The translations under genes were made by a program, and so were the position numbers. DNA of 63,042 bases, the filler included, from Welwitschia mirabilis (lineage: Eukaryota): the NCBI GenBank assembly GCA_051453625.1. It is 6 parts of one record of this genome, joined end to end, with 100 filler letters (N's around TTAATTAATTAA, not from the genome) between each part and the next. Parts side by side here need not be neighbours in the genome. Positions count along the whole stretch, not along the records: positions 46,781 to 55,515 come from JBOZIK010000001.1; 5 more parts are not named here. One strand, written 5' to 3'. The notes under the pieces were generated by a model, which did not search any database, was not told the origin of the DNA, and saw only the letters and a program-made list of their open reading frames with translations. The first letter of the stretch is position 1, and every line of letters starts with the position of its first letter. This document shows, piece after piece, positions 35,600 to 63,042 of the stretch.

Positions 35600-38500
35600 T
35601 ATCCTTAATGTCTTCACTAGAACCAAATCTTAAAGTTTATAATGTGTAACTCTTATTATTGTTTTATGGTACTGATGTTGAAGATCCAATGATACATTTA
35701 ATTAAGTCTAAAAATGTGTTGGAATTTGTAGCATTTATAGCTACTGATAGAACTAAGATGATTACTTTTAGAACCATTTTAAAAGAAAAAGCCAACTTTT
35801 GATTGCAAACAATACAAAATTCAATTGGATCTTGGAAGGAATCTAAAAATACTTTTATGAAAGAGTTCCTTTTTAATGATAAACTATATAATTTGAGAAA
35901 TAACTTAATGAGTTTTCAAAAAAAAGAAAGTTGAATATTATGAGAAATATTGTTGAGGTTTTTTATGTTATGCTAAAAGAACCCTCATCATAGGTTTTCA
36001 TCACATAAAGTTATTTACATATTTACTAAATGATTAAACAAATACATAATTAGAATTTAGACTTTTTGATAGATGATAACGTAATTAACTAAAACACCTC
36101 AATAATCTTGTAAAATATTAGAAGCATTACTTGATCAAAGAAATAGATGGCTAACTAAGCCAACTAAACAAGACACATTTTCTTAAGAGAAATCAATACT
36201 GGTTAAAAATATGGGATACATGATGTATAAATTAATGGTTATCATAATGATCTAACAATCTCAATAATATCTTTTACCATTGACATCAGTTATAGGAAAA
36301 TAAACTATAACACCATCATAGTCTACTCAAACTATTATAAATGAACCTTAACCTAAACCAAGTTTGATGATTGTGTGAAATTTTGAGTTATGTGTTATTT
36401 ATAAAAAAAAAAAAAGAAAATCAAGATCAAGCTTGTGGAGATTAGCAATATGCACTTGATTTTACAAAAGAAATAATAGTAGTGTTACAAGAAAACATTT
36501 CTTTTACTTTTTCAAATTTCATTACACCTAGATAAGTAAACCTCTTAATAATTAAAGATTTCAATGAAAATAATAACCATTATAAAAAATACCATCATAT
36601 CCATCAAATACATGTATAAACCTCAAATTCCAATAATGCCATGGAAATTTAGGATTTATGCAATTTATCAATAATATATTATGACTCAAGATGAATCTAA
36701 TGAATAAAATGATTAGAAACATGTACTGAATGCTTATAGACTTTATGTAGAGATAATAACCAAGATTACCTTTACAATAAAAGCTAAATTCTATCAATAA
36801 CTATCATGAACAAAGTCCATCCATAATGACCTAAAGTGAAAAAGTTCAAAATTATTAATAAATATTCAATCTTTAAGAAAGAAGAATAAAAATTTATTAA
36901 CATTAGAAGTAATAATCAAAGAAATAACTAAAGATGCAACTACTAATAAGAAAGCTAAATTAGTAGAAATATCTAAAGAAGAAGATTCATCCACTTCTCA
37001 TCTAGTATAAGTATTAGAAATACCAACACCTACACCACTTTTTTCAATAAGATTAAAAGAGAACATTAGGAATGATATAAATCTTACTCTAAATTTTGAA
37101 GAAGTGGAGTTAAAGATACCTTTGATGCATGCTATTAGAGATACTCCTCTTACTTCAAATACATTAAGAAAAATGAAAAGGAAATTCACATTGCAAAATA
37201 TCCATTTAACAAAGAACATAACTTAAATAATTATGTAGAACATTTCTTCTAAGTTTAAGGATCCTAGATCACCAACTATTCTAGTAATCATTAATAAGAA
37301 AAGAATGACTTATGCCTTATTATGTTTATACACAGTGTTAATATCATGTTTTTTTATTTATGTAAAACTTTGGATTGAGTAAAAGTTTTTAAAACCAACA
37401 TGATTCTATCATTAGGATATTGTTCTATTACAAATCTAAAAGGAATTATTAAAAATATATTATTTCAAGTAGACCAAAGTATATACCCTATAGATTTTAT
37501 AATTCTAGATATTAATGAAAATGTTTTATGTTAATTATTTTAAAAATATCTTGGTTAAATATGAGAAATGGTATAATTCATTATTAAACTAGACTACACA
37601 ATTAAAGTTTGTAAATTTTAAAATAAACATTGAAAATTTTAATTCTTTTGAACATGAGGAAGAGGGAAAACATAGATAGAAAACAAGATTCATTAATATA
37701 GATACCAAATACATTCTCATTAAATACTCTTTCTAATTAGTATTATAAAATGAGCATGAAAACCTTCTAGACATAGATGATCAACATGTGAAAGTTAAGA
37801 AAATTAAAGAACTAAATCTTTTTGAACTACAAGATAATTAAAACATCATCATAGAAAATGAATTTTAAGAAATATTGGTGCTTAAATAACTACCATCCAC
37901 TCTAAAGTACATTTTTCATAATGTATAAAAAGAAAAGCTACTAATCATTAGTAATGATCTAAATCCTAGACAAGAGAACAAGTGATTCAAAATATTAAAT
38001 AAAATAAGGAATCCTTCACATGGTCACATAAAGATTTTGAAAAATAAATCTCACTAGCTTTGGTAATGTAACAAATTTACCTATAAGAGAATTTAAAACT
38101 AACCAAGTAACATCCTTATTGTTTTAACCCTATATTACTAAAGAGAGTTAATACTGAGGTCCATAAGTTATGAAAAACAAGTATTATATATCTAATGATA
38201 GGTAATAAGTGGCTAACTCTAATTGTAGTAGTGTCAAAGAAGAATGGTAAATGACAAGTTTGCATTTACTTCAAGAATTTAAAAAAATGTATAAAAAAGG
38301 GTCACTTTCCCATATCAAACATTAATAAAATCCTTAAAAATCTCTAGGGGTATTAATACTATTACTTATTGGGATAATTTAGTGGTTATAACTCAATTGC
38401 TATAATATCTACAGATTACTAAAAAATAATATTTACTTTACTATTTNNNNNNNNNNNNNNNNNNNNNNNNNNNNNNNNNNNNNNNNNNNNACCTTTACTT

Positions 38501-40860
38501 ACCAAATAATTTCTTTTCAATTAAGCAATGCACTTTTTAGTTTTTAAAGAGTTATGATGTCAATTATGTTTGATATTCTTGAAGAATACATAAAGATATT
38601 TATAAAAAAAAATTAGTATATAGTAATTCCTATCATAAAAGTCTAGAATAAATTTAAAAGTATTATCATGATGTATCAAATAGGATTTAAAATTGAGTTG
38701 GGAGAACATCCATTTAAGTTTTAAAAGTGGGATTGTCTAAAGAGATGTTGTTATCACATGCTAAAATAACTATGGATCCTAAGAAAATTGAAGTTATTAC
38801 ATCTTTACCAGTTCCAATCAATCTCAAAACATTAAGAGGTTTCCTAAGACACACTGGATACAAACAATAATTCATTAAAAATTTTTTGAAATTTGCAAAT
38901 CATTTATCTGAATAATTGATAAAGGATAAAATATTTATATGGAGTGATACCTATGAAGATATTTTAAGGTTTTGAAAGAAAAAACTATTATTACACTTAT
39001 TATTAGTATACCAAATTAGTACTATTATTTTGACTTAATGTGTAATTCTAGTAACACTACAATTGGTGTAGTCTTAGGACTCATCTCATTTACTATATTT
39101 TAAAAACCATCACTCTAGCTTAATGCAATTATATAACTAAAAAGAAATTTATAGTAATTAGTACTACATTTGATAAGTTTTAGCACTACCTTGTAGGTTT
39201 TAAAACTCAATTCTACATGTATCATTCATCTATCAAGTTCTTAGAAATTAAGAAAATTGATAATATTTGTATTATGCATTGGTGCTTACTTATGAAATAA
39301 TTTGACTTAAACATTTAAAAAAGGCTGAATCATGATAATTTAATTCTAGATAATCTTTCTCATTTTGACATATCCTAGAGATGCAAACTAAGGATACCTC
39401 TAATGGTATCTTTTCAACTGAAAAATGATTTAAAGTACACTCTAACCCTCACAACTAAGATCTTAGTATGAACATCATGAATTATCTATCTACCCTTCAT
39501 GTTTAATAAGATTGGTTAAATGAGCATAAGAAATTATTTCTTAAAGGAATTAGAAATTACATTTGGAAAAATTCTTTCTTATATAAAATTTGATAGGATA
39601 AAATTTTACACTAATGTATTTTAAAATAGGAATANNNNNNNNNNNNNNNNNNNNNNNNNNNNNNNNNNNNNNNNNNNNNNNNNNNNNNNNNNNNNNNNNN
39701 NNNNNNNNNNNNNNNNNNNNNNNNNNNNNNNNNNNNNNNNNNNNNNNNNNNNNNNNNNNNNNNNNNNNNNNNNNNNNNNNNNNNNNNNNNNNNNNNNNNN
39801 NNNNNNNNNNNNNNNNNNNNNNNNNNNNNNNNNNNNNNNNNNNNNNNNNNNNNNNNNNNNNNNNNNNNNNNNNNNNNNNNNNNNNNNNNNNNNNNNNNNN
39901 NNNNNNNNNNNNNNNNNNNNNNNNNNNNNNNNNNNNNNNNNNNNNNNNNNNNNNNNNNNNNNNNNNNNNNNNNNNNNNNNNNNNNNNNNNNNNNNNNNNN
40001 NNNNNNNNNNNNNNNNNNNNNNNNNNNNNNNNNNNNNNNNNNNNNNNNNNNNNNNNNNNNNNNNNNNNNNNNNNNNNNNNNNNNNNNNNNNNNNNNNNNN
40101 NNNNNNNNNNNNNNNNNNNNNNNNNNNNNNNNNNNNNNNNNNNNNNNNNNNNNNNNNNNNNNNNNNNNNNNNNNNNNNNNNNNNNNNNNNNNNNNNNNNN
40201 NNNNNNNNNNNNNNNNNNNNNNNNNNNNNNNNNNNNNNNNNNNNNNNNNNNNNNNNNNNNNNNNNNNNNNNNNNNNNNNNNNNNNNNNNNNNNNNNNNNN
40301 NNNNNNNNNNNNNNNNNNNNNNNNNNNNNNNNNNNNNNNNNNNNNNNNNNNNNNNNNNNNNNNNNNNNNNNNNNNNNNNNNNNNNNNNNNNNNNNNNNNN
40401 NNNNNNNNNNNNNNNNNNNNNNNNNNNNNNNNNNNNNNNNNNNNNNNNNNNNNNNNNNNNNNNNNNNNNNNNNNNNNNNNNNNNNNNNNNNNNNNNNNNN
40501 NNNNNNNNNNNNNNNNNNNNNNNNNNNNNNNNNNNNNNNNNNNNNNNNNNNNNNNNNNNNNNNNNNNNNNNNNNNNNNNNNNNNNNNNNNNNNNNNNNNN
40601 NNNNNNNNNNNNNNNTTAAAGCTTTTAAGAAATATATCTTAAAATGCTTTGGGAATCTACATTTTATTATTAATGGTTAATGAACTTAATTCATTAATCA
40701 AACCATGAATAAATTAATAAAGTTAATAGGAATTATACATAAATTTACAATTGCTTGTCATCCACAAATAGATGGCTAAGTTGAGAAACTTAACCAAGAG
40801 ATTGAAGGGGAAGAGATCTTAATTAAAATATTTAATTCTAGTAAGGATTGATATAGAAAA
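35600..40860 (+). pseudogene. pol: Element D: degenerate full gag-pol (gag, PR, RT, RH, INT) of a non-chromoviral Athila-like gypsy element
   Basis: FYGTDVEDPMIHL (35663), KFKDPRSPTI (37250), WLTLIVVVSKKNGK*QVCI..KGHFPI (38209-38315), FSGYNSIAI, LRGFLRHTGY, LMCNSSNTTIGVVLG and integrase CHPQIDG*VEKLNQEI (40756-40803) appear in gypsy order. Confidence 0.85.
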
Positions 40861-44668: not shown

Positions 44669-46680
44669 TATTGCAATGCCAACTTAGATGTATTTGATAG
44701 GGTATTTTGAGTTGTTTTGCAGATAAACTAATAGATAAATGCCTNNNNNNNNNNNNNNNNNNNNNNNNNNNNNNNNNNNNNNNNNNNNNNNNNNNNNNNN
44801 NNNNNNNNNNNNNNNNNNNNNNNNNNNNNNNNNNNNNNNNNNNNTAGAGGAGAACCTGATAAAGACCCCATACAACACATCACAGAAATAAAACAACTCA
44901 TCCTTACATCCGATAATGGTAAGAAATGCATAACCGATAGAAATTACATGATCATCTTTCCCATGAATTTGCGAGAAAAGGCTAAACTTTGGCTTAGAAT
45001 GATCTCTCATACAAGCCTAAAATCTTGGAGCCAAGTTTAAGAGGCCTTTGTCAAATGATTTATGAATGAAACCACCATCCGAAAACATAAGAAAGAAGTT
45101 ACAACCTTCCAACAACTACCAAACGAAGACTATCCTTTTGCTTATGAGAGATTTATCGTAGCTTTACACTCAAACCCAGTAGAAGCTTTTTCTAAGGTAG
45201 AATTAATAGACTATTTCTATAGTGGATTAAATAGTCACACTAAACAACTAGTAGATTTCTCTTGTGGANNNNNNNNNNNNNNNNNNNNNNNNNNNNNNNN
45301 NNNNNNNNNNNNNNNNNNNNNNNNNNNNNNNNNNNNNNNNNNNNNNNNNNNNNNNNNNNNNNNNNNNNNNNNNNNNNNNNNNNNNNNNNNNNNNNNNNNN
45401 NNNNNNNNNNNNNNNNNNNNNNNNNNNNNNNNNNNNNNNNNNNNNNNNNNNNNNNNNNNNNNNNNNNNNNNNNNNNNNNNNNNNNNNNNNNNNNNNNNNN
45501 NNNNNNNNNNNNNNNNNNNNNNNNNNNNNNNNNNNNNNNNNNNNNNNNNNNNNNNNNNNNNNNNNNNNNNNNNNNNNNCAAAAAAGTGTCTTTTACTCCC
45601 TACATGCAAAGAGAGAATTTATGAAGAAGTATCTGCATTAAACCAAGGACCCTCCAACTATAATCAAAACTACAACCAAAGACAAGCCTCAAATCACAAC
45701 TTTCAAAATAGGATGAATGAACCATCTAGCAATTTTCAATCACATTATTCTAACTCCCAACCCTATCAAAATAGATTTGATCATCAAAATTTCCAATACA
45801 ACTACTCTTTAAACTCCCAGAATCATAATGATCCTCTTAGAAATTCTGTTAAAGAGTTAAGAAAANNNNNNNNNNNNNNNNNNNNNNNNNNNNNNNNNNN
45901 NNNNNNNNNNNNNNNNNNNNNNNNNNNNNNNNNNNNNNNNNNNNNNNNNNNNNNNNNNNNNNNNNNNNNNNNNNNNNNNNNNNNNNNNNNNNNNNNNNNN
46001 NNNNNNNNNNNNNNNNNNNNNNNNNNNNNNNNNNNNNNNNNNNNNNNNNNNNNNNNNNNNNNNNNNNNNNNNNNNNNNNNNNNNNNNNNNNNNNNNNNNN
46101 NNNNNNNNNNNNNNNNNNNNNNNNNNNNNNNNNNNNNNNNNNNNNNNNNNNNNNNNNNNNNNNNNNNNNNNNNNNNNNNNNNNNNNNNNNNNNNNNNNNN
46201 NNNNNNNNNNNNNNNNNNNNNNNNNNNNNNNNNNNNNNNNNNNNNNNNNNNNNNNNNNNNNNNNNNNNNNNNNNNNNNNNNNNNNNNNNNNNNNNNNNNN
46301 NNNNNNNNNNNNNNNNNNNNNNNNNNNNNNNNNNNNNNNNNNNNNNNNNNNNNNNNNNNNNNNNNNNNNNNNNNNNNNNNNNNNNNNNNNNNNNNNNNNN
46401 NNNNNNNNNNNNNNNNNNNNNNNNNNNNNNNNNNNAAGAAAGCCTTAATAGATATAGGAGCTATTGTTAATATCATACCCTTGCACATTTATAAACGTTT
46501 AGGATTGGAAGAGAGAATAGAACCTACAAACATCGTCTTAGAGTTAGCTGGTTCATCCATTAAGAAACCCTTAGGAGTGATAAAGGACTTGGTCATTCCG
46601 ATAGAGGAAGCTTTCTACCACATAGATGTAGTTGTTTTAGAAGTCGAGAATTAAAATACATATCCCCTATTTCTAGGTAG
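44669..46680 (+). mobile_element. Athila-like element 5' part (LTR start, gag, protease) inserted into the CRM-like RNase H
   Basis: Bases 44669-44744 match the LTR start at 51764-51840. Gag motifs begin at 44846. Confidence 0.75.
45062..46654 (+). pseudogene. gag: Gag-aspartic protease (ORF bridges two N gaps, so frame continuity is unknown)
   Basis: FQQLPNEDYPFAYERF, LIDYFYSGLNSHTKQLVDFSCG, an N/Q-rich linker and protease KKALIDIGAIVNIIP are present. Upstream gag has stops. Confidence 0.85.
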
Positions 46681-46780
46681 NNNNNNNNNNNNNNNNNNNN
46701 NNNNNNNNNNNNNNNNNNNNNNNNTTAATTAATTAANNNNNNNNNNNNNNNNNNNNNNNNNNNNNNNNNNNNNNNNNNNN
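46681..46780. other. Artificial scaffold-joining spacer N44-TTAATTAATTAA-N44
   Basis: The 12-mer at 46725-46736 has 44 N on each side. Confidence 0.97.
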
Positions 46781-47797
46781 CATTATGGTTTTTATCATCA
46801 GTTAATTTGTGATTATACTTATATTTGTAATCCCTTCACTTATTACTAGAGAAAAATGTAAATTTAAATGGAATGAATCTTATCATCTTACTTTCAATAG
46901 GCTTAAACATAAACTATCTTATGCTTCTATAATCATAAGACCTAATTGAAAACTTGACTTTGAGCTTATGTGTGATGCGAGTAACTTTGCCATAGGTGGG
47001 GTTCTTTGTTAAAAATATGAGAATGATTTTAAAGTTATANNNNNNNNNNNNNNNNNNNNNNNNNNNNNNNNNNNNNNNNNNNNNNNNNNNNNNNNNNNNN
47101 NNNNNNNATTATCTTTTACCTTGATTCACTTAGATATTATCTTTTAGGCTTTTACATGAATATTTACATTGATCATTCTACCATTCATTACCTTATGATC
47201 AAGAAAGATTCTAGTTCCCGTTTGATTAGATGAATCCCTTTTATGTCAGAGTTTAACTTAACCATGATAGATTAAGTAGGGAAACATAATTCTATTACTA
47301 ATCACTTATCTTGACTCCCTTCTCCTCCAAATGGTACTATCATTAATGATTCCTTTCTTGATGAGGAGCTTTTCACTCTTTCTTCTTTTCATCCTTCTTA
47401 ATGATATGCTGACATTATGAAATATCTTATAACCATGAAAACACCACAACACTGAACATATAATCAATGTAAATCTTTTTTCCATTAGATAGGTAACTAT
47501 GAGTGGATCGAGCTAGATTTGTACCATAGGTGCAAAGACCAAATCATGAGAAAATGTGTGCTCGATTGGGAGATACCTACAATTCTTTATCTTTATCACA
47601 ATGATGTTTGTGGAGGAAATTTTAGTGGACATAAAACTGTGATAAAAATCCTCCATTCTAGTTTTTACTAGCCTTTTCTTTTTTATAATTCATTTGATTT
47701 TATTAGAAGGTGTGATCCTTGTCAGTATTATAGTAGTCTTGTTTGTTCATAAGAAATACCCCTTTAGACCTATTCTCAAGTGTGAGCCTTTTAATTA
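46781..47797 (+). pseudogene. pol: RNase H and integrase N-terminal zinc finger (Athila-type pol)
   Basis: DFELMCDASNFAIGGVL, IDHSTIHYLMIKKDSSSRLIR*I, INDSFLDEELF and YHNDVCGGNFSGHKT..CDPCQ. Confidence 0.9.
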
Positions 47798-49849
47798 NNN
47801 NNNNNNNNNNNNNNNNNNNNNNNNNNNNNNNNNNNNNNNNNNNNNNNNNNNNNNNNNNNNNNNNNNNNNNNNNNNNNNNNNNNNNNNNNNNNNNNNNTCT
47901 TAGATTATGTGGGAGTGTTCTTTTCTGTCTTTTATCTCACTTATTTACCTTTATATTTTTTAAGTATGTAATCATGTGGGAATTTTGTTTGGAAAAAAAT
48001 GAGAAAATGAAAAAGTGAAATAATGGCCATGATATGTCTATTTTGTATTCTACAAACATGGTCAGCATGATGTCCTACTATAAGTATACTAGGATAAATA
48101 TTTCTGAGAGGAGCCTTTGAAAATCTAATATGATAGCCATGAGAACTCTACTAGGGGATCATTTGGCCATGCTTTGTGGGTCCTTACTCCTCTAACAGTG
48201 GCTGCACTCCCCTTATCATGGTAAAAGAAATAAAACTTTTAGTATTTCCACTTGATCATTTCACTTTTGGAGATTCCAATGAGTTTGTATGCAGAAGCAG
48301 GTGAGTCCATTTCTTAGTAACTTTTGGTTTTTGACCTTCATTATTCTACATACTTGACACTTTAGATATCACCATAACCATTGTATTTTCGAATGAACTT
48401 TACAGATTTCATACATTTTGTTATGCATATTTACTTAGGTGATGTTATGATGTTTTCCTTGGAAGTTTTCTAGGTTAGTACTTTGGATATGTAAATAATC
48501 CTTTCCTTACTCCTTAAGTCTATTTTCACTCTGTTTTTCATGAGTTTTTGAGTTTAGAATTTCAAAGTCATTTCTGTATTTTCTTATTCCTTCATAGGAC
48601 CTTAATCATATAGTAGCTTTCTTGTTATTTGATCATGATAAATTATTTTTTTAAAAATGCATTTGAAAAATGTTAACATAAACATCTTTATTTTTTGAGT
48701 CTTTATGAGTTTCCTTATAGGTTATACAATTCTAAGTCTACTATGCTTTCATTTTTGTTTGGGCACATTCATATAGTTTTTATTACAAGTTTCAACCTAG
48801 ATAGTCTATTTTCTTCAGCCATAGTTTTTCCTTTTATATGTATCTGTCCTTTTAAGAAATGTTACTTAAATGATCATATTTGAGCCAAACTTTTATAGCC
48901 AACCTGTTTCTTTTTGATAAACCTTTTAATGCCCCATCGTCTATTTAGTTATCTAGACAACACTAGGGTGGATGATGGTCTAATTTGTTTTGAGAGTTAT
49001 CCTAGGACCATCGTCCAAACGATGCCACTGAATGATAGTATGATAAAACCATGGATCAAATACTTTTTCCTCATTTTCACTCATTTTCTTGACATATTTG
49101 TTCATTTCTTTGAGAGTCAATGATCCCTCTAGTTAGCACAACATTTTAGGACTTATCTCACTCAATTTCATTATCAGATTTATGAGATTTCATCATATTT
49201 ATAAAAATGAGGTATGTTTTTCTTTCCTACCACTTTTTACTTTTTTCTCCTATTTTTATCCTTTTAATTCATATTTTTGATGTATATTGTTTAATTTTTT
49301 GTGCTCTTCACTTTGGAACTTATGGATTTGAATTTCATTGTGTATTTGTCGAGTTATGATCCATTTTTATGTATTACAAGGTATTTTCAGGTTTTTAATT
49401 TTTGTGCTCAATTTCTTGCAAACTGTAGGTTGAATCATAGTGGTCCTTTAAGTAAACTTGATCAGTTTAATATGTTATATTTTCACTTCATGTAGGACCC
49501 ACTAAAAATTCAGTTTTCACACTTTTCATAATTTTCTCCATTTTTCTCTCATGTTTACGTAATTCGGAATGCATCACATCTTTTTAGGTGGGCAGGACAA
49601 GATATATTTTCAATATTTCTGCTAGTTTTTCATCAATTTTAGGGGTCGTTATTATGCATCCATGCGATGTTTTGACTTGTCTATCTATTTTCGCATGATG
49701 AGTTTGTGTTTTCGATTAAGTAGGCCATGTATGCATTAAGCTAGATAAGCCAAGATTATGGATAAGCTTATGGAGTAAGTGGTAGGCCTCTTGGTTAAGC
49801 CAGAGATAGAGCATGTAGACCCGTGCATCTACCACCTCAATACAGATGA

Positions 49850-51230: not shown

Positions 51231-51763
51231 TAGTTCATCATGCATAAATGAGAAAAGTAATTTTTCACTATATTTTGTATCTTCCCTTTTATACCTTTTA
51301 TACTAAAAACTCTCTTCTGATATTATAGAGATATATTATTTTTCTAGCATGGTCTACTCATTTCTTTCTAATTTTACATGATTATTTTTTGATTTTTATG
51401 ATGAGGATTTATTTATTCATAGGTAAATCTTTCATTCTTAACTATTTATTTTAGTGGGGGCTATTTATCATATTTAACTAATTATTTGTATAGGTTCCAA
51501 ATTTCAAAGCTTTTCTCTAAGCCTATCATTTCCTCCATTATCTAGAGGACAACACAAATAACTGACTTCTAAGCTTACACAGGTATTTTGTTTAGTGTTT
51601 TTAATCTTTTAAAATTCAGTTTTCTATCTCTTAAATATTCTGTAAATCTTTCTGAGATAATTTATTTAGGTATTCTAGTTGTTTTAATATCCAATAAGTT
51701 GGCTCATAAATGTGATTTACCACTGACATTTATTGGGAATTGACAAGGCTAAGTGGAGGGCTA

Positions 51764-53032
51764 TGTTACACTGCCAACTTACACATATTTAATAGGATAT
51801 TCCAAGTTGTTTTATAGGTAAATAGATAGGTAAATGCTTGGTTTTCATGATAATTGAGAGATAGAATAAAAATGATGAAAATATGCAATCTTCAAAATAA
51901 TTCACAAGAATTCTAAACAAATATGAACACTTTGTATTTCTAAAGATAATTTCCTACCAACATTGAGGCTAATGCAATGACTAAACAATTACTAAAGGCC
52001 ATCATCCACCTCATCATCTAGATGACTGTACAGATGATCATGCAAGCTGGATACTAATTGAAATCTAACTAGTAGCTAATATGGAATAATTATAAAATGG
52101 CATCATCACCTCTATCATCCGAATGATCAATGGAATAATACTATTATAATGTTTGTACTAAAAATTCACCAAGATTTTACCACTTGTATTTTCATTTTCT
52201 TTTTGTATGATCCTTACAGTTTACCTATATTTTTCTATCTTTGTTGTTATGTATCTTTAGTTAATAAATAAAGATGTTTTCCTTAACTTGTAGTGGTCTT
52301 CGTTTGCACTCAAAATTCTCATGACAAGAGATAGAAGGGCTAGAGATCCATCTTGTAGTTCTAGAGAGATATTTCCTTGGTATTAGGTGATGTTTCCTCT
52401 ATTAAGATGCAGCTATTTTATACCATAGATGCATTTCGAATCCTAATACAAAACATTTCTTTTTTATGCTTTAATGTGTGAATGTTTCTCTCCCTCATAG
52501 CTTAAGTTGCTTGAGATTTAGTGACAATATCTCTTGTGATATAGGTTATGAGGGTAACCTTTATCAAGGTTAAGCTTGATTAATTTAAGTTAAGTGNNNN
52601 NNNNNNNNNNNNNNNNNNNNNNNNNNNNNNNNNNNNNNNNNNNNNNNNNNNNNNNNNNNNNNNNNNNNNNNNNNNNNNNNNNNNNNNNNNNNNNNNAGTG
52701 ACAGTATCTCTTGTGATATAGGTTATGAGGGTAACCTTTATCAAGGTTAAGCTTGATTAATTTAAGTTCAGTGCATTACTGTTTCTTTTTGCTAGATTAT
52801 CTTTACACAAGTGTGCTTTTCTTTTCTTTCATACATTGTAAGCGATTTTTGTAGATTAGAATACAAGAATTTCTCTTTTGAAAGATACTCTCTTATTTCT
52901 ACTTTGGCCTTGATAGATTATGATATTTGGATCAACTCCCATCTATATTAGTGTTGTATTTGTACAATTATTATTTGTGATTAATAAGATTCTACTTAGG
53001 ATGTAAACATTGCATAAATATGCACTGCAACA
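51764..53032 (+). repeat. Complete 3' LTR of element E
   Basis: Termini TGTTACACTGC...GCACTGCAACA form an imperfect 11-bp inverted repeat (TG..CA) directly after the PPT. Confidence 0.85.
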
Positions 53033-53119: not shown

Positions 53120-55515
53120 CTATAAGATATGCCACACAGAATATGAATAATGCAAATATGGAAATGAAACGAAATAGAATGCAATTCAAAATCTAAACTA
53201 ATAAAGACACCCTTAACATAGGTTACCTTTATGATCTAAATAAACTATAAAGTTGTTACCAAACTATAATTAACTTAAACCATAAGGGACATTTACACAA
53301 AAGGAGTGAAAAGGGTTCTTAAATTAATTATTAATTTAACATCCACTTATAATAAAGTAGTAGCATCTAAATGGAGGATATTCAGTCCAAAACTAAAGTA
53401 AACTTATTTTTGTAGCTACTAGATGGGCCTCTTATTCTTTAATCTTCCATCGCAAGAATATTTGGTACAAAAGATAAAAAATAGAAGTGAAGAAAAGGGA
53501 GGGTATTTATAGTTTTACATTAAATATCTAGAAACTCAACTCTAAGAATTGGAGAAGAAACCCTAGCAACCCATATGGGTCACATGACCCCATTAAAAAT
53601 ATAAGCCTTTTCATCCATATAAAAATAGGTATCATATTAAGTATCATGAAGATGATAATAGGGATAATACTCCATGGCAAAAGGTGATCCATTAGCTTTA
53701 GGCCCCATAGTCAACTATGCAGATTTGATCCATATCAGTAGTGCTATCATCCTATCTATCGTGAGGATAACATAGGGGATGACAAAACTCTCTATCTTCT
53801 AGTTTAAAGGGAAATAAGTCTTCTACATAGGTAATCTGTTATTTAAGAAATGAAGTATTAAAATAAGCTTGAAATACCTCCAATATGCTAAGAATTGCAT
53901 GTTTCAGTGAATATCCTATTGATTCTTTATAATTATTAAAATTGCATCCAAACCTATATAAATGTCTTATAAAAATACTCAAAATACACCATCCAATTCC
54001 TATAAATTAGCATCACAACATAGCCCTTACATAGCCTTGTTAGTCCTTGATAAAGTAAGTGATTAAGCAAATCAATTTAACTAAGAAAACTAGCAACTAA
54101 AAAAATGTAATTTTGAGTTTAATTTTTACTATGTAAGAATAGACATTAAAAACCAATTAACTAATATATTTATAAGCCCCCTACTTAAACACATTATAAT
54201 AAAACAAATAAATATCACACATATAAAAATCATAAAATTTAATGATGATAGCTTAGAAAATAATTATGTGTATGCATAATTCAGGATAGTGATACTAAAA
54301 CTGATGTGTAAAACTAAGTAGTAATAACTCAAGAAAAAAATGATGCATGCAAGTTTATTAATGTATTTTACAAAGGAAGAAGTATAAAGAGTAATCATAA
54401 CATTCTTTTTCCTTATTCAAGACATTTAGATATTCTAAAACGTAGCTTTAGAAAAACTCTATGAGTGTGCTACTATGCTTTTATTAGATAAAGTTCATAA
54501 AATTTTATTCAAGTAACATGAATTCATATCAAAACAAGTCATCATAAATATGTATCATGAAAGCTTAAAAAATGAACATTTTAAATTTTAAAATTTTGTC
54601 AATGTATTTCAAAAAGCTCAAAAATATGTTCTGCTCCATCATTCCCCCAACAAGTATAATAATACATACCGAATTACAACAGAGTGAAAAGGATGATTGT
54701 CATCCTGTCTATTATGAAAATGAAAAATGTGGTACAAAACTAATCAAATGAGATGTTGGAAAAGATAGAAAAAAATAGAAAAAGTCTAAAATTAATCAAG
54801 CACTAGAAAAACAATAAAATATCAAGAAGAAGTTAAAAAGTAAAGAATTATCCTAAAAAACATAATCTATGATGAAAAGAGACTTATGAAAAAAAGGATA
54901 TTAAAGAGAAAAGAATGCAATAAGTAGAAGGAAGCAATTCTTAGAAGAATTCCTCATATGTACTCAAACTCAATAAGCATGAAAAAGTAAGAATTTAAAC
55001 TCAAAAGTATTATTATCACCTATCAAAAAAGAGAAACAACAATTCACATGAATAGAAGCTATGAGTAAAATTAATAAGAAACTACTAAATGGTNNNNNNN
55101 NNNNNNNNNNNNNNNNNNNNNNNNNNNNNNNNNNNACCATTTAAATAGGTAATGATTATTATGATTTAAAGTATGTTTAATGTTATTAAACAATAAATGA
55201 TAAAATAAAAAGATATTAAAACATGAACTAACTAGCTCATATATTAAAACAACACTAGATTATAAAAAAGTATAATGATCATGTAGAAGTACTAAATGTA
55301 AAAGGAGTCTATAAAATAAGCAATTCTTCTGATGAAACTAGGGGCATCACAAATCCCCTAGCCTCTAAGTAACAATTTATTCTATCATGATGTGGGAAGT
55401 GCAACCACTATCAAAGGAGTAACAACCCATATAACATGGCCAACTAATCCCCTAGTGGAGTTCCCATAGCTATCATATCACACTGCTAAAGGCTCCTCTT
55501 AGGAAAATTTTCCCC
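53120..55515 (-). mobile_element. Element F: Athila-like 3' LTR (about 53120-54020), PPT and 3' internal region without ORF2
   Basis: The junction catcacaaca|tagcccttacatagcc is at 54020. It is homologous to element A 15-2000, and the conserved block is at 55386-55515. Confidence 0.8.
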
Positions 55516-55615: not shown

Positions 55616-58293
55616 TTTCTTTCTCCATTTCACACTTTTTCCTTTAGTGTATAAAAAAGATAGAACCTTAACTTAATTTCATTATGTTTTAGCCCTATCT
55701 AGCTCTCAGATCTAGTGATTTTCTCTCAAGATCCAGAGCTCTTACTTCTAAATCCAGTGTTTTTCTTAGTTCTTTTACTAGCAAGGGTCTTAGAATGGCT
55801 GAGAGTCTTCTACGAGAAGAACAAATGAGGCTCCTTCAAGGAAACCATTCTACTTCTACTAAAGAGTATTAGAAGAAGATGTTGAGAAGTTCACTGATAA
55901 GTTTGAAAAGAAGGTTGTGTACTAGGAATTCTTTATACCTACATCAAAGCTCAAAGAACTCAAGGAAGTCATCTAACTCTTGAGAAATCAAGATTTTGAT
56001 TATTTCTTGGATGTTTCAGGTTCAGCTTATCCATGTCTTACTAGGATGTTTTACTATAATGCCTCTTTTAATCGTGATTCTAAGAATCTTAAAATTCTTG
56101 TTCTAGGTAAGAGGATAAGAGTGATAGTAAATCTTATCTCTGAGCTAACCAATCTTTGAAGGAAAGACTATGAGGAGTTTTGACCTCTTAGCAACACCAT
56201 GGAAGACAAGCCTACAGTTATTAGGGAGCTTTGTGGTAGGGTGCATTCGTGGAAGCACAATTTATTTACCTCTTTGTTGACTCCTAAATATCATTTTATT
56301 CATTTACTGTTTACTTATAACTTTCTACCTTTAGCTGGCCATTGTGATGAGGCCTCTTACTATTAAGCCTATTTGATTATTTGATAAGAATTAAGCATTC
56401 CATTGATGCTCTTATCATAATACTGAAGAATATGACCTCATAGCTAGAATACCACAAAACTAGGACTTTACCCTACTTTGTGCTTATCACTAGTATTTAT
56501 CATCATTTTCATATTAACTTTCATCTTAAGTTGAAAAATCTTTAGTCTATATCATCCATTGGGTGTGCAACTTTATCTCGCATGCATATCTTTGCCTCAT
56601 CAAAGAAATCTCCTACTGCTCCTCTAAAGGAAGCATCTCCTAATGAGACTCTTTCATGTCTGAGGCAGATTGACACCTGCAACAAACACATGAAAGAAGT
56701 CATTCTTATAGCTAAATATGACATTATGGATACCTCAGTTGAGGCTACTAGTTCTGCTCGCATTAGAGGAGATGACGAAGAATCAGAGGCAGACTTTGAA
56801 GAGGAAGAAGAAGAAGGAGAGAAGGAGCCTAATTAAAATCTTTTATTTTTCAAATTATATTTGGTGATTCTTTTCTTTACCTTTAGTGTCAAAAAAGGGA
56901 GATTTAGTTATACTTGTTTGTTAAATCTCAATTATATACTCTTGATGAGGACTTAGTTTCTTTGTACTTCTTGCATGTTAGACTTGTAATGTTTTACTCA
57001 TAATGCAATTTAGTTATCTATCTTAGTACAATCTTGGTATCATTTGATATATCTCATTTGGTAGTATGATATTATATGTGCTTATTTAATAAAGCTTAAA
57101 TTATTATAACATTTAAAAATAAACTAAAATATTTATGTTATCTAATTAAATAAGTTTCTTTGATCACATTATAATTATCTTTGTGCCTTCTGAATTTCTA
57201 AATTATAAATAATTAAATTAGTTACATTTAAAATCACAAACTATTATTTGTTTAAAATACCTTAACTTGTCTCAAACTTGGATTATTACTATGCAATAGT
57301 ATTAGGGGGAGAAAATTTGATATTTTTGGACACATATTTAAGGTTTATATTTCTTTACCATTAATGTTAAAAGGGGAGAAAATCTAGTATTTTCAAAGTA
57401 TTTTTTCAAACATATGTAGTGTTTTATTAAAGGGGGAGAAAATGGTTTGTTTTTAGAAATATTTTACTCTTTACTTAATATTGTTTATATGGCGTTGTAA
57501 AAGGGGAAGTTTTTTATTTTGCCTCAAATTTGTTTGGTAAAAGAGCTTAAATTTGTTTGATTTTGAAATCACTTATTTCTTTGCTATCAATGTCAAAGGG
57601 AAAGATTGTTGGATTATATATTACCAATTGATGTCAAACTAATATCTTTTATATAGAAAATGTTATATGTCTTATGCAAAAGAGTTTAAGATTTTTGCAA
57701 GTTAAAAGATGGAATAAAATATGGACTAGAAATCTATCTAGTTAGTTCATCCTCTAGAGGGATTAACTGAATATCTTAAAGGGGTTAACCGCACCTGAAG
57801 CTATCAAAAGAAAAATGAACTGAACCCATAGGTATCAATCAGATTCTACTAGAATTAATAGAATCTATAACTTAAAGAATCAGTGTCCCTAAACTAAATG
57901 ACAAGGGGTTGACCAGTCCAAGATGGAGTCAATCAGATTTGAGAACATGATAAACAGTATGTTTAGACTAAGAGACAAGTGGTCAACTAGACTCAGATGA
58001 GGTTGACTAGACATGGAAACATAAAAACTTAGGGTAGCTGAACTTCTCTCTTAGGTAACCTATGTAATTCATGGCACCACATGGAGTTGACCAGATTTTT
58101 GTGGGGTCAACTAGACAACACAGAAAAGAAATCTTTATAAATGTTATTTATTTATTTTCTATCCATTAGGTAGCTATTTTGTAGCTGTTTATAGCCATTA
58201 GAAGTACAATTCAATTGTAATAAACCCTAATAGACTTCCATTATAAATAGCTAAGATATAGATGACTAAAAAAACTTTTGGAACTATTCTCAT
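55616..58293 (+). mobile_element. Sirevirus (SIRE, Ty1/copia) 3' part, copy 1: extra ORF, multiple PPTs and 3' LTR from 57607
   Basis: AGGGGGAGA-like tracts occur near 56891, 57304, 57369, 57428 and 57499, with terminal gtcaaagggaaagat|TGTTGG. The LTR carries decayed GTCGAC-type repeats and tataaatag near 58243. Confidence 0.8.
55795..56836 (+). pseudogene. Sirevirus env-like/extra ORF with an acidic C-terminus, disrupted
   Basis: QDFDYFLDVSGSAYPCLTRMFYYNA, LVLGKRI, LPYFVLITSIYHHF and the tail GDDEESEADFEEEEEEGEKEPN (ORF 56582-56836). Confidence 0.7.
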
Positions 58294-58393
58294 NNNNNNN
58301 NNNNNNNNNNNNNNNNNNNNNNNNNNNNNNNNNNNNNNNNNNNNNNNNNNNNNNNNNNNNNNNNNNNNNNNNNNNNNNNNNNNNNNNNNNNNN

Positions 58394-60762
58394 AGTTACT
58401 GTTCATCCTAAGTTGAAAACCCTTCAGCTAATGTCACCCATGCATTGGGCATGTGACCTTGTCTCCCATGCATATCTTTGTCCCCTCTAAGAAATCTCCT
58501 ACTGCTACTTCTAAAGAAGCATCTCCTGATGAGACTATTTTATATCTGAAATAGATTGACTCCTATACTAGACACATAAAAGATGCCCTCATTGAAGCTA
58601 TATATGACATTGCAGATATCTTAATAGAGGCTACTAGTTCTACTTGCACTAAAGGAGATAAGGAAGAATCAGAGAAAGACTCTGAAGATGAAGAAGAAGA
58701 AGAAGAAGAGGAGGAGTCTAATCAAATTAATTTTACTTCAAATTATGTTTGGTGTTTTTTCCTTTTCCATTGGTATCAAAAAGAGGGAGAATTAGTTGTG
58801 TTTATTTTGTTAAATTTCAGTTGTATGCTCTTGATGAGCACTTTTTTCTTTATAATCCTTACATGTTATAATTATAATGTCTTACTCATAATGTAATTCA
58901 ATTATCTATTTTAGCACAATCTTTGTATCATTTAGTATATCTTATTTGGTAGTGTAATATCATATGTGCTTGTTTTGAAAAGCTTAAATCATTGTAAATT
59001 TTGAAAATAAACCAAAATATTTGTGTCATCTAGTTAAAGAAGTGTTCTTGATCACATTATAATTATCTTTGTGCCTTCTTAATTTCTAAATTATGCATAA
59101 TTAAATTAGTTACATTTAAAATACAAAATATTGTTTGTTTAAAATACCTTAACTTGTCTCAAACTTGGATTATTACTATGACATAGTATTAGGGGGAGAA
59201 AATTTGATATTTTTGGGCACATATTTAAGGTTTATATTTCTTTTTCATTGATGTCAAAGGAGGTTAAAATGTAGTGTTTTCAAACATAAGCATCAACTAA
59301 AAATGGTTTACTTCAAAAATATTTTTATCCTTTGTTTAATGTTATTTATATGGCTTTGTGAAAGAGGGAGTTCTTATTACGATAATATGCCTTAAATTTT
59401 TTAGTGAAGGAGATTAAATTTGTTTGATATTAAAATCACTTATTTTTTTATCATTAATATCAAAGGAGAAATTTATTGGATTATATTTTGTCAATTGATA
59501 TCAAACTAATGTCTCTTGTATAGAAAATGTTGTATATATTGNNNNNNNNNNNNNNNNNNNNNNNNNNNNNNNNNNNNNNNNNNNNNNNNNNNNNNNNNNN
59601 NNNNNNNNNNNNNACTTATTTAGTTAGTTTACCTTCAGGGGTCAACCCAATCCTAAAGGGAACGACCATACTTAAAGCTATCAAAGAAAAATAAACTACA
59701 TCTAGAGGGATCGACCAGATTCTAATGGGATTAACTGGACCTGTAACTTAGAGAATCAGTGTCTTCGAATCAAATGGCAAGGGTTTTATTAGATTTTCAT
59801 GGGTTAACTAGATTTGAGAATCTAATAGATACTATTCCTAAACTGAAAGATAAGGGATCGACCAGACCTAGGNNNTGATGGGACCTAAATGGGTTCGACT
59901 GGACATGGAGACATAAAAAACTTAGGATGATTAAATCTTTCTCTTGGAAAACCTGTGTAATTTACAACACCACATGGGGTTGACTAGATTTTCGTGGGGT
60001 CAACCAGACAGTGTGAAAAAGAATTTTTTTTAAACATTATGTATCCATTATTTAGCCATTGAATAGCCCTTTTCTAGCCATTTATAGTTGTTGGAGGCTC
60101 AATTCAAATGTACTAAATCCTAATAGCCTTTCATTATACATAGAAAAGCTATAGATGACTAAGGAATCTTTTGGAATTATTCTCATTCAGTTAAATCATT
60201 TGAATTTGAAAGATCAAGTTGTGTATTAACATTATTATATCTTAGCTTCTACAAATCTAACTAGAGGAGATCTATCATTAACACATGTACTTAATTCAAA
60301 GTTAGATCTAGAGCTACATTGGTGTATTACTATAGGAGGAGAGCTTCATCTATTACACTATTTTAGAATGATTGATATTTGTACTATTTAGACATCACCA
60401 CATCACTATCTCTTTTGCTAAAGCTTGAGACTAAGCCTTAAAAGGTCTATGTTAAAGGTTGAAACTAAGCCTTAAAAATCTTGTGATATAGATTAAGACT
60501 AAGCCTTAAAAAGTTCATTGTGAAGGTTGAGACTTAACCTAGAAAAGTCTACTTATAAAGCGTTACAGATGAATCAGGAATACCTAGTGGAGTAACAGAG
60601 ATCTAAGATCTAGCTTGGAAGAAGCTAATCATTGAAAGTAGAGTGGGTGATTTTCAAACCACTATAAATCTGGCTTGCATCAAATTAGTAGTTGTTTTTT
60701 ATTTTTGATTCTTTACTTTTAGTATTTTATCATATTGTGCACATCCTAAATAAATTTATTTT
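58394..60762 (+). mobile_element. Sirevirus 3' part, copy 2: ORF tail, multiple PPTs and 3' LTR from about 59474
   Basis: It is colinear with 56520-58293 but clearly diverged, and extends further into the LTR, including aaaccactataaat near 60656. Confidence 0.8.
60425..60549 (+). repeat. 34-bp tandem repeat (4 copies) inside the Sirevirus LTR
   Basis: ttgagactaagccttaaaa-like units start at 60425, 60459, 60493 and 60527. Confidence 0.85.
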
Positions 60763-61244: not shown

Positions 61245-63042
61245 ATTCTTGCATGAGAATGATCCACCTAATAAGTATGGTACTAGAGTATTTTTTAGTT
61301 ATAAGATAGCAGATGGGTACATGATCTATGTAAACATTAATGTAAAAGCCAAAAAAATAATATCGTAGATGCCCCCCCACCCCCTCCCTTCCCTATAACA
61401 GTGTTTCTTACATCACATATAAGTTCAAAATTTTTACTTAAATCAGGACCCATTATAATAGGTTTAGAAGAAATGTTTTCCTTGACAGTTTCAAAAGCAA
61501 ATTAACATAAATCATTCTAATCAAATTTAACATATTTTTCAAATAATGAATGGAGAGGTTTATAAATTCTAGTTAATCATGAATAAAATGTCAATAAAAA
61601 CTAGCATGATTAAGGAAAGATCTAACTTGTTTAACATTAGCTAGAGCGCTAAGGTTTTTAATGCTATCAACTTTTATGGGGTCCATCCTAATCCCTTCTT
61701 TAAAAATGTGATGTCTTAGGACAACTCCATGGTTAACAAGGAAGAAACTCTTTTCCCAATTCAAGTATAAGCCACTCTCAATACATCAATTTAAGACTTT
61801 CTCTAATATCTCTATGGTTTGTTTAAACGTATCACCAAATATGGAGAAGTCATCCATAAAGATTTTAATAGAATCTTTTATAATATCAAAAAATATCCCT
61901 ATCATGGCTTACTAAAAGATTCTAGAAGCATTAAAAAGTCCAAAGGGCATTCATCTAAAAGCACAGAATCTAAAGGATGAGGTGAAAGTGGTTTTATCCT
62001 GGTCTTTACTTGCTATAAAAATTTGATTATAGTTATTATACCCATAAAGAAAATAATAATAGGCATAACCTTGGAGTCTATCAAGTACTTGATCAAGAAA
62101 GGGTAAAGGGAGATGATCCTTTTTATTGACCTCATTAAGTTTTTCAAAATTGATACACATTCTCCATTTTCCTCCCTTCTTTGGAACTACTATTAAAGGC
62201 CTAATCCACTCACTATCGGATATGGCATATATGATTCCATCATCTATAAGCTTAGTGATTTCAGCTTTAATGATTTGTTTAAGGTCTAGATTGAGTCTTC
62301 ATTGAGTTACCTAATAGGTTTAGCATTATTTTCAAGATAAATTTTATGTTGAACTATGAAAATAGGAATAAGTCTTTATGTGTCTAAGAAAAGGCATTAT
62401 TTTTAAGTTAAGAATGAGATCAAGTTTGATTCCTATTGAGGAGTGAAAAGATCACTAAGTATTAAAGGTTTTATTTAATTTTCAAATAGAAAAATATATT
62501 TTAATTCTTGGGATAATTTCTTAAATTTAAAGCTAATATTTGATCTATTGTCTTATCTATTGCGGGCATAACAGACATGGGATGACACTTTGTAAAACAT
62601 TTTTCTACCATAAAAATGTTGAGTTTCTTCTCAATCATTGTGTTCTTCATCCTCAGACTCAAGACAGTGTGTTTTAGTGGGATCATCATATAAAGTTGGT
62701 TTATGTAGCATGATTAATCTCTTCTCAATTAATCAATGTTATAAAAATAAGGTTGGTTTTAGTTCTTCTTCAAGATTAAACTTAATTCTTATTTCCTTTT
62801 TAGTAGCATTAAAAACTCTAATGGTAATTTTTCTATTGCCAAAATGATATCTTATCATACTAGATCATGTGTCAATGATACAATGGTCAGTTGCACAAAA
62901 GTATCTTCTTAAAAGAAGTGGATAACCTCCATCATATTTTATCTCACTGATGACAACATCTATGTGTTAAACATATTCCTTAGTTTGGATAAATAAGTCC
63001 TTACTAATTTCTAATTGTTTCCTGGTTAAGGTATTAGTCAAT
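61245..63042 (-). pseudogene. pol: Element G: Athila-like pol pseudogene (PR end, RT, RNase H)
   Basis: GIIYAISDSEWIRPLIVVPKKGGKWRMCINFEKLNEVNKKDHLPLPFLDQVLDRL, MPFGLFNA, IFMDDFSIFG and FELICDV. Confidence 0.92.

Follow-up and report, generated by a model that had tools for sequence, protein, structure and literature searches.

Among the closest described counterparts of the element reported here are structured RNAs of retroviruses and LTR retrotransposons. HIV-1 has three prevalent DIS palindromes, one of them GUGCAC flanked by purines; in retroviruses, the signals for dimerisation and packaging are found close to the 5′ end, and lentiviral dimerisation is regulated by conformational switches (PMC5874298). 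In Ty1, a pseudoknot is located near a palindromic dimer interface, and the MTE of MusD needs a kissing contact together with a pseudoknot for export (PMC5767303). Among plant LTR retrotransposons, Evade carries an ENE triple helix, a structured RNA that aids mobility (PMC12501189), and the retrozymes are hammerheads in non-autonomous elements derived from plant Ty3/gypsy, RNA motifs carried by non-autonomous LTR elements (PMC5680766).

Here we describe a 155-nt block in the 3′ region of LTR retrotransposons that recalls these systems in part. Like HIV-1 SL1/DIS and the Ty1 region (PMC5874298, PMC5767303), it is a cis-element candidate of an LTR retroelement with a palindromic loop word after purines that a distant strand could mask; unlike them, it is located in the 3′ internal region and not in the leader, has a 14-nt loop and shows no sequence kinship, and its dimerisation is a prediction. 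Like the retrozymes, it is found on non-autonomous elements, but it has no hammerhead match, is internal and single-copy per element, and also occurs in a pol-bearing element.

The window (the whole stretch of 63,042 nt of Welwitschia mirabilis DNA that was analysed) represents a fragmented assembly of plant type, in which 53 runs hold 9,233 N. Four copies of the block are located at 48066-48220 (+; copy 1), 1871-2025 (-; copy 2), 11631-11796 (-; copy 3) and 55386-55515 (-; copy 4). When copy 1 was used as the blastn query, the other three were found with E values of 1.5e-30, 9.6e-27 and 8.4e-15, so that the four sense-orientation copies listed in an earlier note on this DNA were recovered. 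A fifth full copy was not found by nhmmer or a covariance model in the readable part of the window, and an 18-nt partial block at 11488-11505 was rejected as a fifth copy because it is a duplicated contig end. We note that 100-base gaps, some of them with a six-frame stop linker, are present at many sites between 92-100% duplicated contig ends, for example at 11488-11505, 2518-2757 and 30095-31656. Copy 1 is heavily deaminated, copy 2 is the least decayed, and copy 3 has an 11-nt insertion in a variable hairpin. Copy 4 is short, as the earlier note had stated, with its 5′ 25 nt lost at a scaffold gap; its truncation may thus be an assembly effect.

Copy 1 lies in an element whose 5′ LTR starts near 44671. 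Coding remnants come next (44846-47764, +; broken gag, protease, RNase H and the integrase N-terminus), and a scaffold gap separates them from the block; the PPT is located further on, at 51751. The PPT and the start of the 3′ LTR (51751-51837, +) are 76% identical to 44671-44742, and no RT was seen in the readable sequence of this element. A gag-like start is located less than 3 kb upstream of copy 2, which lies ~1.85 kb upstream of its PPT; gag and protease are found less than 1.3 kb upstream of copy 3, and copy 4 lies ~1.2 kb upstream of its PPT. A tblastn search with 167 related proteins found no RT, RH or INT in the copy-2 or copy-3 element. The block is therefore retained in elements without visible pol (two of the four), as the earlier note had claimed. 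In all four elements the block has the sense orientation of its element and occupies the same zone, after the coding region and 1.2-3.5 kb upstream of the PPT.

An RT at 61576-62319 (-) belongs to an element that shares 208 nt of 3′ region with copy 2 at 76% identity. This RT groups with angiosperm RTs on a long branch in a tree of 27 rows (support 96/89), and it does not have the 18-residue insertion of angiosperm Athila-type RTs. We take the grouping angiosperm proteins to be Athila-type, a name that the databases do not use. By this RT grouping, and by the gag-PR-RT-RH-INT order expected of the type, the host elements are Athila-type Ty3/gypsy. Another gag-pol element of the same kind is located at 35600-40850 (+), and its 3′ region is unreadable. 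The stretch at 55700-60200 holds a different element, partly duplicated (56520-57668 versus 58402-59535, 79%), in which an acidic ORF end and a weak match to Transposase_32 (E 0.022) were seen.

Pairwise identity among the block copies is 75-84%, and their GC content is 39-47%, compared with 22-32% in the 300-nt flanks, which bears out the description of the block as locally GC-rich. For five of the six copy pairs, the upstream flank is unalignable or gives matches of only 27-42 nt, and one pair (copies 1 and 3) has no downstream flank in common. The 861 aligned base pairs between block copies comprise 666 identities, 147 transitions and 48 transversions, and the purine/pyrimidine class is kept in 117 of 131 block columns. 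Transversions per aligned base amount to 5.6% in the block and 8.8-17.5% in all six best-aligning comparison regions, the protease region included. GC-rich methylated DNA is expected to decay faster.

The boundaries of the block are also seen in public data. Four public runs, consisting of 21,457 and 26,411 DNA contigs (two organisms) and 78 and 33 RNA reads with the strand not given, were aligned to 1280-2587 at 80% likeness. In the two organisms, 85 and 84 DNA contigs break at 1874, close to the 3′ end of copy 2, and the flanks beyond this break agree at just 0.53-0.54. The RNA reads break at 1868-1875 and at 2025, which are the ends of copy 2, and 91% and 94% of the aligned RNA reads contain unlike sequence beyond the block. 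Read depth is 13-24 on the block versus 0-6.6 on the flanks in one RNA run (X14), and 2-9 versus 0-3.7 in the other (X17); summed DNA depth on some flanks is as high as on the block. At position 1965, the CpG cytosine is kept in 14 of 24 RNA reads, compared with 17-22% of DNA contig depth, and this higher frequency in RNA suggests that the transcribed copies are the less decayed ones. The block is a real, sharply bounded and conserved element, and the greater divergence of its flanks, noted earlier, is borne out both by the transversions and by the sharp breaks in contigs and reads.

The block is non-coding. Stop codons are found in all frames of all four copies (1-7 each), so the protein-coding remnant considered earlier as a counter-explanation was not found; no frame is open across the copies. 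The length variants, +11 nt in copy 3 and in 8 RNA reads and +4 nt in 6 RNA reads, are all located within one hairpin, and these lengths, which are not multiples of three, argue further for a non-coding block. Fifteen upstream and downstream frames, read with X, gave no convincing Pfam match; in a control over the pol remnant, one of three frames gave RNase H and integrase matches.

Many helices are possible in the block, and they are described here by copy-1 coordinates (+). A 7-bp helix between 48066-48072 and 48214-48220 would close the domain; its 5′ strand is the 5′ conservation boundary, with loose RNA ends at the copy-2 equivalent, and its 3′ strand is the 3′ conservation boundary, with contig breaks at the copy-2 equivalent. 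It is followed by a 5′ hairpin at 48073-48094 (48073-48076 with 48091-48094, 14-nt loop), one pair of which differs among the copies (C-G in copy 2, U-A in copies 1 and 3). The loop contains, after AA, a six-base self-complementary word at 48084-48089 that is a candidate kissing loop. This word is GTATAC in copy 1 and GTGCAC in 10 RNA reads, is wobble-paired in copy 2, is broken at one end in copy 3 and is lost at the gap in copy 4. Directly 3′ of the hairpin is TAAAT (48095-48099), of which AAAT is present in all four copies. A central domain (48107-48193), closed by a 7-bp helix of 48107-48113 with 48187-48193, contains a GGGA-loop hairpin (48148-48166) and the length-variable hairpin. A 3′ segment at 48197-48208 can form a 4-bp hairpin (four pairs, invariant in all four copies), or pair with the 5′ loop, or pair with 48122-48129. 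Several crossing alternatives are possible as well. Outside the block, copies 1 and 2 only have an extra 7-8-bp helix at 48025-48063, preceded by an A-rich tract at 47992-48023.

Folding statistics are close to those of chance. Single-copy folding z scores are -0.14, 0.01 and -0.72, and the alignment z score is -0.38; the alignment energy is -18.1 in sense and -8.5 in antisense, both with z of about -0.4. In an eight-helix model, two pairs are changed on both sides, and 292 of 500 shuffles scored as high. A five-helix version of the model proposed earlier has 92% of its cells paired and no pair with both sides changed. The complementary segments described earlier therefore exist, without excess over chance (z about 0), and covariation support for a secondary structure did not emerge above shuffles from the four decayed copies. 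Four deaminated copies give these tests little power, so the fold is neither supported nor excluded by them. The last bases of the ATAGC/GCTAT helix are present in just two of four copies and differ in RNA reads; CpG decay may have given rise to this extension. The best hint of a fold comes from the variable hairpin, whose outer stem, compared by eye, changes in step: copy 1 has GGCC/GGTC, 8 reads have GGTC/GATC and 6 have GGTC/GACC. Another ten RNA reads carry TTCG within the insertion, and in them the 3′ strand of the central helix is altered.

These observations make it probable, though well short of certain, that the block is a cis-acting structured RNA of some kind. We propose more tentatively, with somewhat more doubt than belief, that it is a cis-acting dimerisation and packaging switch in the genomic RNA of one Athila-type lineage, a reading that starts from the conservation, the boundaries, the non-coding character and the transcription of the copies, and from pairings that are possible. 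Its retention in pol-less families suggests that the block acts in cis; autonomous and non-autonomous families alike would keep it because their RNA needs it to replicate. In the proposed mechanism, the 7-bp end helix would close the domain, and the six-base palindrome after two adenines in the 5′ hairpin loop would kiss the same loop on a second RNA. Pairing of the 3′ GUUGCACU segment with the 5′ loop would hide the palindrome; folding of the GUUGCACU segment on itself or on the central AGUGYGAU would free it. We infer that these pairings form, that the RNA dimerises and that Gag binds, and among the candidate functions named in the earlier note, packaging or dimerisation appears to be the best fit.

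Several features support the switch. All four copies are in sense orientation in one zone (coding region, block, PPT), and two of the elements are pol-less. Block transversions are below those of the flanks, against the decay expected for GC-rich DNA, and the sharp ends coincide with self-complementary 7-mers in DNA contigs and RNA reads. The length variants are confined to one hairpin with an in-step outer stem. The loop word, GTATAC in copy 1, is GTGCAC in 10 RNA reads and there has the letters of an HIV-1 DIS palindrome (PMC5874298), and the pseudoknot beside the palindromic dimer interface of Ty1 offers a parallel (PMC5767303). Against it, the block is in the 3′ internal region, several kb downstream of the 5′ leader, and there is no covariation above shuffles and folding z is about 0. 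We estimate the chance of a six-base palindrome after AA or AG in a 14-nt loop at ~2%, and many motifs were viewed; palindromic words are barely above mononucleotide shuffles, the outer palindrome pair is broken in copy 3, and DNA depth on the block is no higher than on some flanks. The position and the weak statistics are the reasons why our confidence in the switch is limited.

The same evidence can be read in other ways. The block could be a neutral module, spread by template switching between co-packaged families, that looks conserved since it is younger than its flanks; the folding and covariation tests gave no signal, the block was not found outside this lineage, and neighbouring stretches are also mosaic-shared between element pairs. 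We consider this explanation unlikely, as both ends are a complementary 7-mer pair that stays constant against many different flanks, the indels are confined to a single hairpin whose stem covaries, and the block is a GC-rich island within sequence of 22-32% GC. An element for export or stability of unspliced RNA, similar to CTE, RTE or MTE, in which the crossing helices would offer tertiary contacts to a host protein, is likewise an unlikely explanation. The position of the block between pol and the PPT and its size of ~155 nt fit CTE and RTE elements; the MusD MTE, CTE and RTE occupy a similar genome zone. Several crossing pairings are possible in the block, and the block resembles the MusD MTE, CTE and RTE in being a candidate structured element that would act in cis in an LTR element and may form kissing and pseudoknot contacts. 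It differs in sequence (no likeness or Rfam match), in having no internal symmetry that we could see and in its plant host, and export is a prediction. With Evade, the block shares the character of a candidate structured RNA in a plant LTR retrotransposon, one that in Evade aids mobility. Binding of poly(A) by an ENE requires U-rich internal loops; the block has no such loop, which argues against an ENE-type stability element, and an ENE was rejected on the lack of a conserved U run above 3-4 nt.

It is quite unlikely that the block acts at the DNA level, as an internal enhancer, an antisense promoter or a protein-binding site whose palindromes bind transcription factors. Its primary sequence is kept with few compensatory changes (117 of 131 columns in the same class), several CATG and TGCA words are present, and reads are about equal on both strands in libraries that may be unstranded. 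However, the orientation is fixed in four of four copies, length varies only in a hairpin, the ends are complementary at long range, and the alignment energy is lower in sense (-18.1 versus -8.5, both with z of about -0.4). Least credible of all, in our judgement, is a translation element (an IRES or a termination-reinitiation element) for the AUG at the 3′ end of the block, or a captured box C/D-like RNA. An ATG is present at the block end in three of four copies, and the words UGGGA, CUGA and AUGAU occur in an order that recalls these two classes. The frames after the ATG close in 3-28 codons where they are readable, and downstream frames have no convincing Pfam family; the ORF2 translation element suggested earlier thus gained no support from a Pfam-matching ORF downstream. 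A box C/D snoRNA was rejected, with the best snoRNA family at E 4.8 in the Rfam search of copies 1 and 2 and a D-like word 25 nt inside the end with no supported terminal stem. A MITE was rejected as well: only 7-bp inverted ends are present, and all four copies are in sense and in the same zone. Target-site duplications were not found at the three copies with both ends.

The suggestion of an unrecognised ribozyme calls for a comparison with the pistol class, which is defined by three stems, a six-pair pseudoknot and a two-base junction (PMC4604425, PMC6154101, PMC6795133, PMC7027511). In the published descriptions, the pseudoknot has six base pairs (PMC6154101), a P3 stem is joined to P2 by a strictly two-nucleotide junction (PMC4604425), and the cleavage site is a GU, with the U facing the base after P2 (PMC6795133). 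These papers list pistols from bacteria, metagenomes and phages only, and their supplements may hold long-insert variants (PMC4604425, PMC6154101, PMC6795133). The block shares with the pistol the order of P1, pseudoknot, A-rich joiner, P2, GCG and GU before P2′, with a U after the P2 strand. Copy 2 reads as a hairpin, a loop strand that pairs downstream, TAAAT, a 4-bp P2 strand and then U, followed by the pseudoknot partner, GCG, and GT directly 5′ of the P2 partner. It is thus conceivable, but very improbable, that the 5′ 80 nt are a self-cleaving ribozyme of pistol-like topology that the rest of the block holds off as a switch. An equally faint prospect is that these 80 nt are an enlarged pistol-type or new-class ribozyme with the 3′ half as its off-switch, which would let the genomic RNA survive, an on-demand cut releasing the 3′ RNA. 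The cut itself, at 1952/1951 in copy 2, equivalent to 48139/48140 in copy 1, is predicted with just as little assurance.

A relaxed descriptor of this order matches copy 2 and none of 20,000 dinucleotide shuffles, and it has no match on either strand in 548 kb from other Athila loci. It was relaxed once the sequence had been viewed and several ribozyme templates had been tried by eye. When a purine-G or strict lengths are required, no copy passes, and one of four passes without the purine-G. The G33-like place is G in 88% of contig depth in one DNA run (X1) and in 25 of 25 RNA reads of X14, and at one P2 pair three copies have C-G and the fourth has U-A. Of its cells, 92% are paired in P1 and 73% in the pseudoknot, with no covariation above shuffles. 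GCG is present in one of four copies and the G33-like base in one of four, never both together; each is common in reads, and their linkage was not seen. The cleavage-site dinucleotide is GT in two copies and AT in two. Both pistol-like U positions are invariant in four copies, and a shifted P2 register would pair the U after P2. Conserved bases of the pistol include the AAA joiner after P1, G5 and A31; the AAA joiner is present in all four copies, the G5-like position lacks G and the A31-like position lacks A.

The defining parts of the pistol are where the resemblance ends. The P3 helix is absent, since the 11 nt between GCG and GT contain no helix of at least 5 bp by helix enumeration and, by eye, at best three A-U pairs around a bulge. 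The pseudoknot has 4 bp in copy 2 and at most 5, versus 6 in the pistol, the P1 loop (14 nt) and the linker (16 nt) are far longer, and the block has 75 extra nt. As P3, the pseudoknot length and the linker lengths fail, the block is not a member of the pistol class, and of the ribozyme suggestion a partial pistol-like resemblance is what is left. In alignment columns, the pistol-like pairings are 12-16/55-59 and 36-39/76-79, and the nested alternatives are 59-63/120-124 and 74-77/102-105. The GCG can be explained as a strand of an ordinary helix (columns 59-63 with 120-124, 16 of 20 cells paired), and the A-rich joiner after the pseudoknot stem is generic, being found also in a post-integrase motif of other Athila elements. 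No pistol match or score was obtained in Rfam at the gathering threshold or, for copies 1 and 2, at E<=10, and no pile-up of read ends was seen in the 78 and 33 RNA reads, which are few. Moreover, an LTR element would be expected to suffer from an internal cut of its genomic RNA. Oligo-dT depth falls from 9.0 to 3.6 across the putative cut; this was discarded as cleavage evidence, because six length-variant reads stop aligning nearby and the other RNA run has no drop. Hammerhead, HDV-like, hairpin, twister, twister-sister and hatchet ribozymes were rejected by element order, compared by eye.

Searches for a known family or a wider range of the block gave little. Rfam returned no match at the gathering threshold over the window, and at E<=10, in a search that covered copies 1 and 2, only chance matches and no ribozyme were found, which agrees with the earlier remark that the block was not recognised as a known RNA family. 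Exact block motifs were absent from viral, metagenome and prokaryote collections. With looser motifs, 10 and 18 loci came up, all judged to be chance (best model E 0.033, for loci chosen on the motif). Copy 2 had no blastn match in plasmids and phages, and protein-led scans of viral contigs found no relatives. We also examined 80 of 585 Athila-type integrase loci of other plants, taken from metagenomes. The block is absent from these 80, of which 49 extend at least 1 kb and 24 at least 4 kb after the integrase; since they form ~20 groups of typical angiosperm elements, this absence is hardly informative on close relatives. To date, the block has been seen in two organisms only, which have related DNA. 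In the literature covered, mostly open-access and exclusive of the older Athila descriptions, we found no paper on such an Athila element or on a pistol in a plant retrotransposon.

Two other motifs were observed in the angiosperm loci. A strict pattern of a ~50-nt post-integrase motif is matched by 36 of 70 Athila-type loci, ~15-120 nt after the integrase match (L013-L089, e.g. L018, L021, L030, L035). It consists of a 3-bp hairpin whose loop can pair with a downstream AGC, a UAAA joiner and a hairpin with a covarying stem. The motif resembles the block in being non-coding and downstream of pol and in its small hairpin, UAAA joiner and loop-to-downstream pairing; it differs in its length and unrelated sequence, was not found in the window, and its loci do not contain the block. 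The coremin Xrn1-resistant RNA also has a 3-bp hairpin, a conserved A-rich spacer and a second hairpin (PMC6546385), but the first loop of the post-integrase motif is 7-8 nt and not YGAD. A possible role of this motif is protection of a subgenomic ORF2 RNA. Among the matches listed, no paper linked coremin with retrotransposons. A second cross-family motif is a short hairpin directly 5′ of the PPT (L013:3308-3365, L014, L030, L060, L065 and others).

For now, the block is an uncatalogued conserved element with a narrow known range, and its fold is a candidate only. If the cleavage reading were true, it would extend pistol-like chemistry to eukaryotes and would place an internal ribozyme switch in an LTR element. 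Little is known of how RNAs of plant Ty3/gypsy elements, and those of the non-autonomous derivatives, are chosen to be packaged and copied. A short element with sharp ends that is kept across unrelated flanks offers a direct handle on this question, as the isolated RNA is open to probing and to dimer and cleavage assays, and the block could help to group non-autonomous elements with their helpers.
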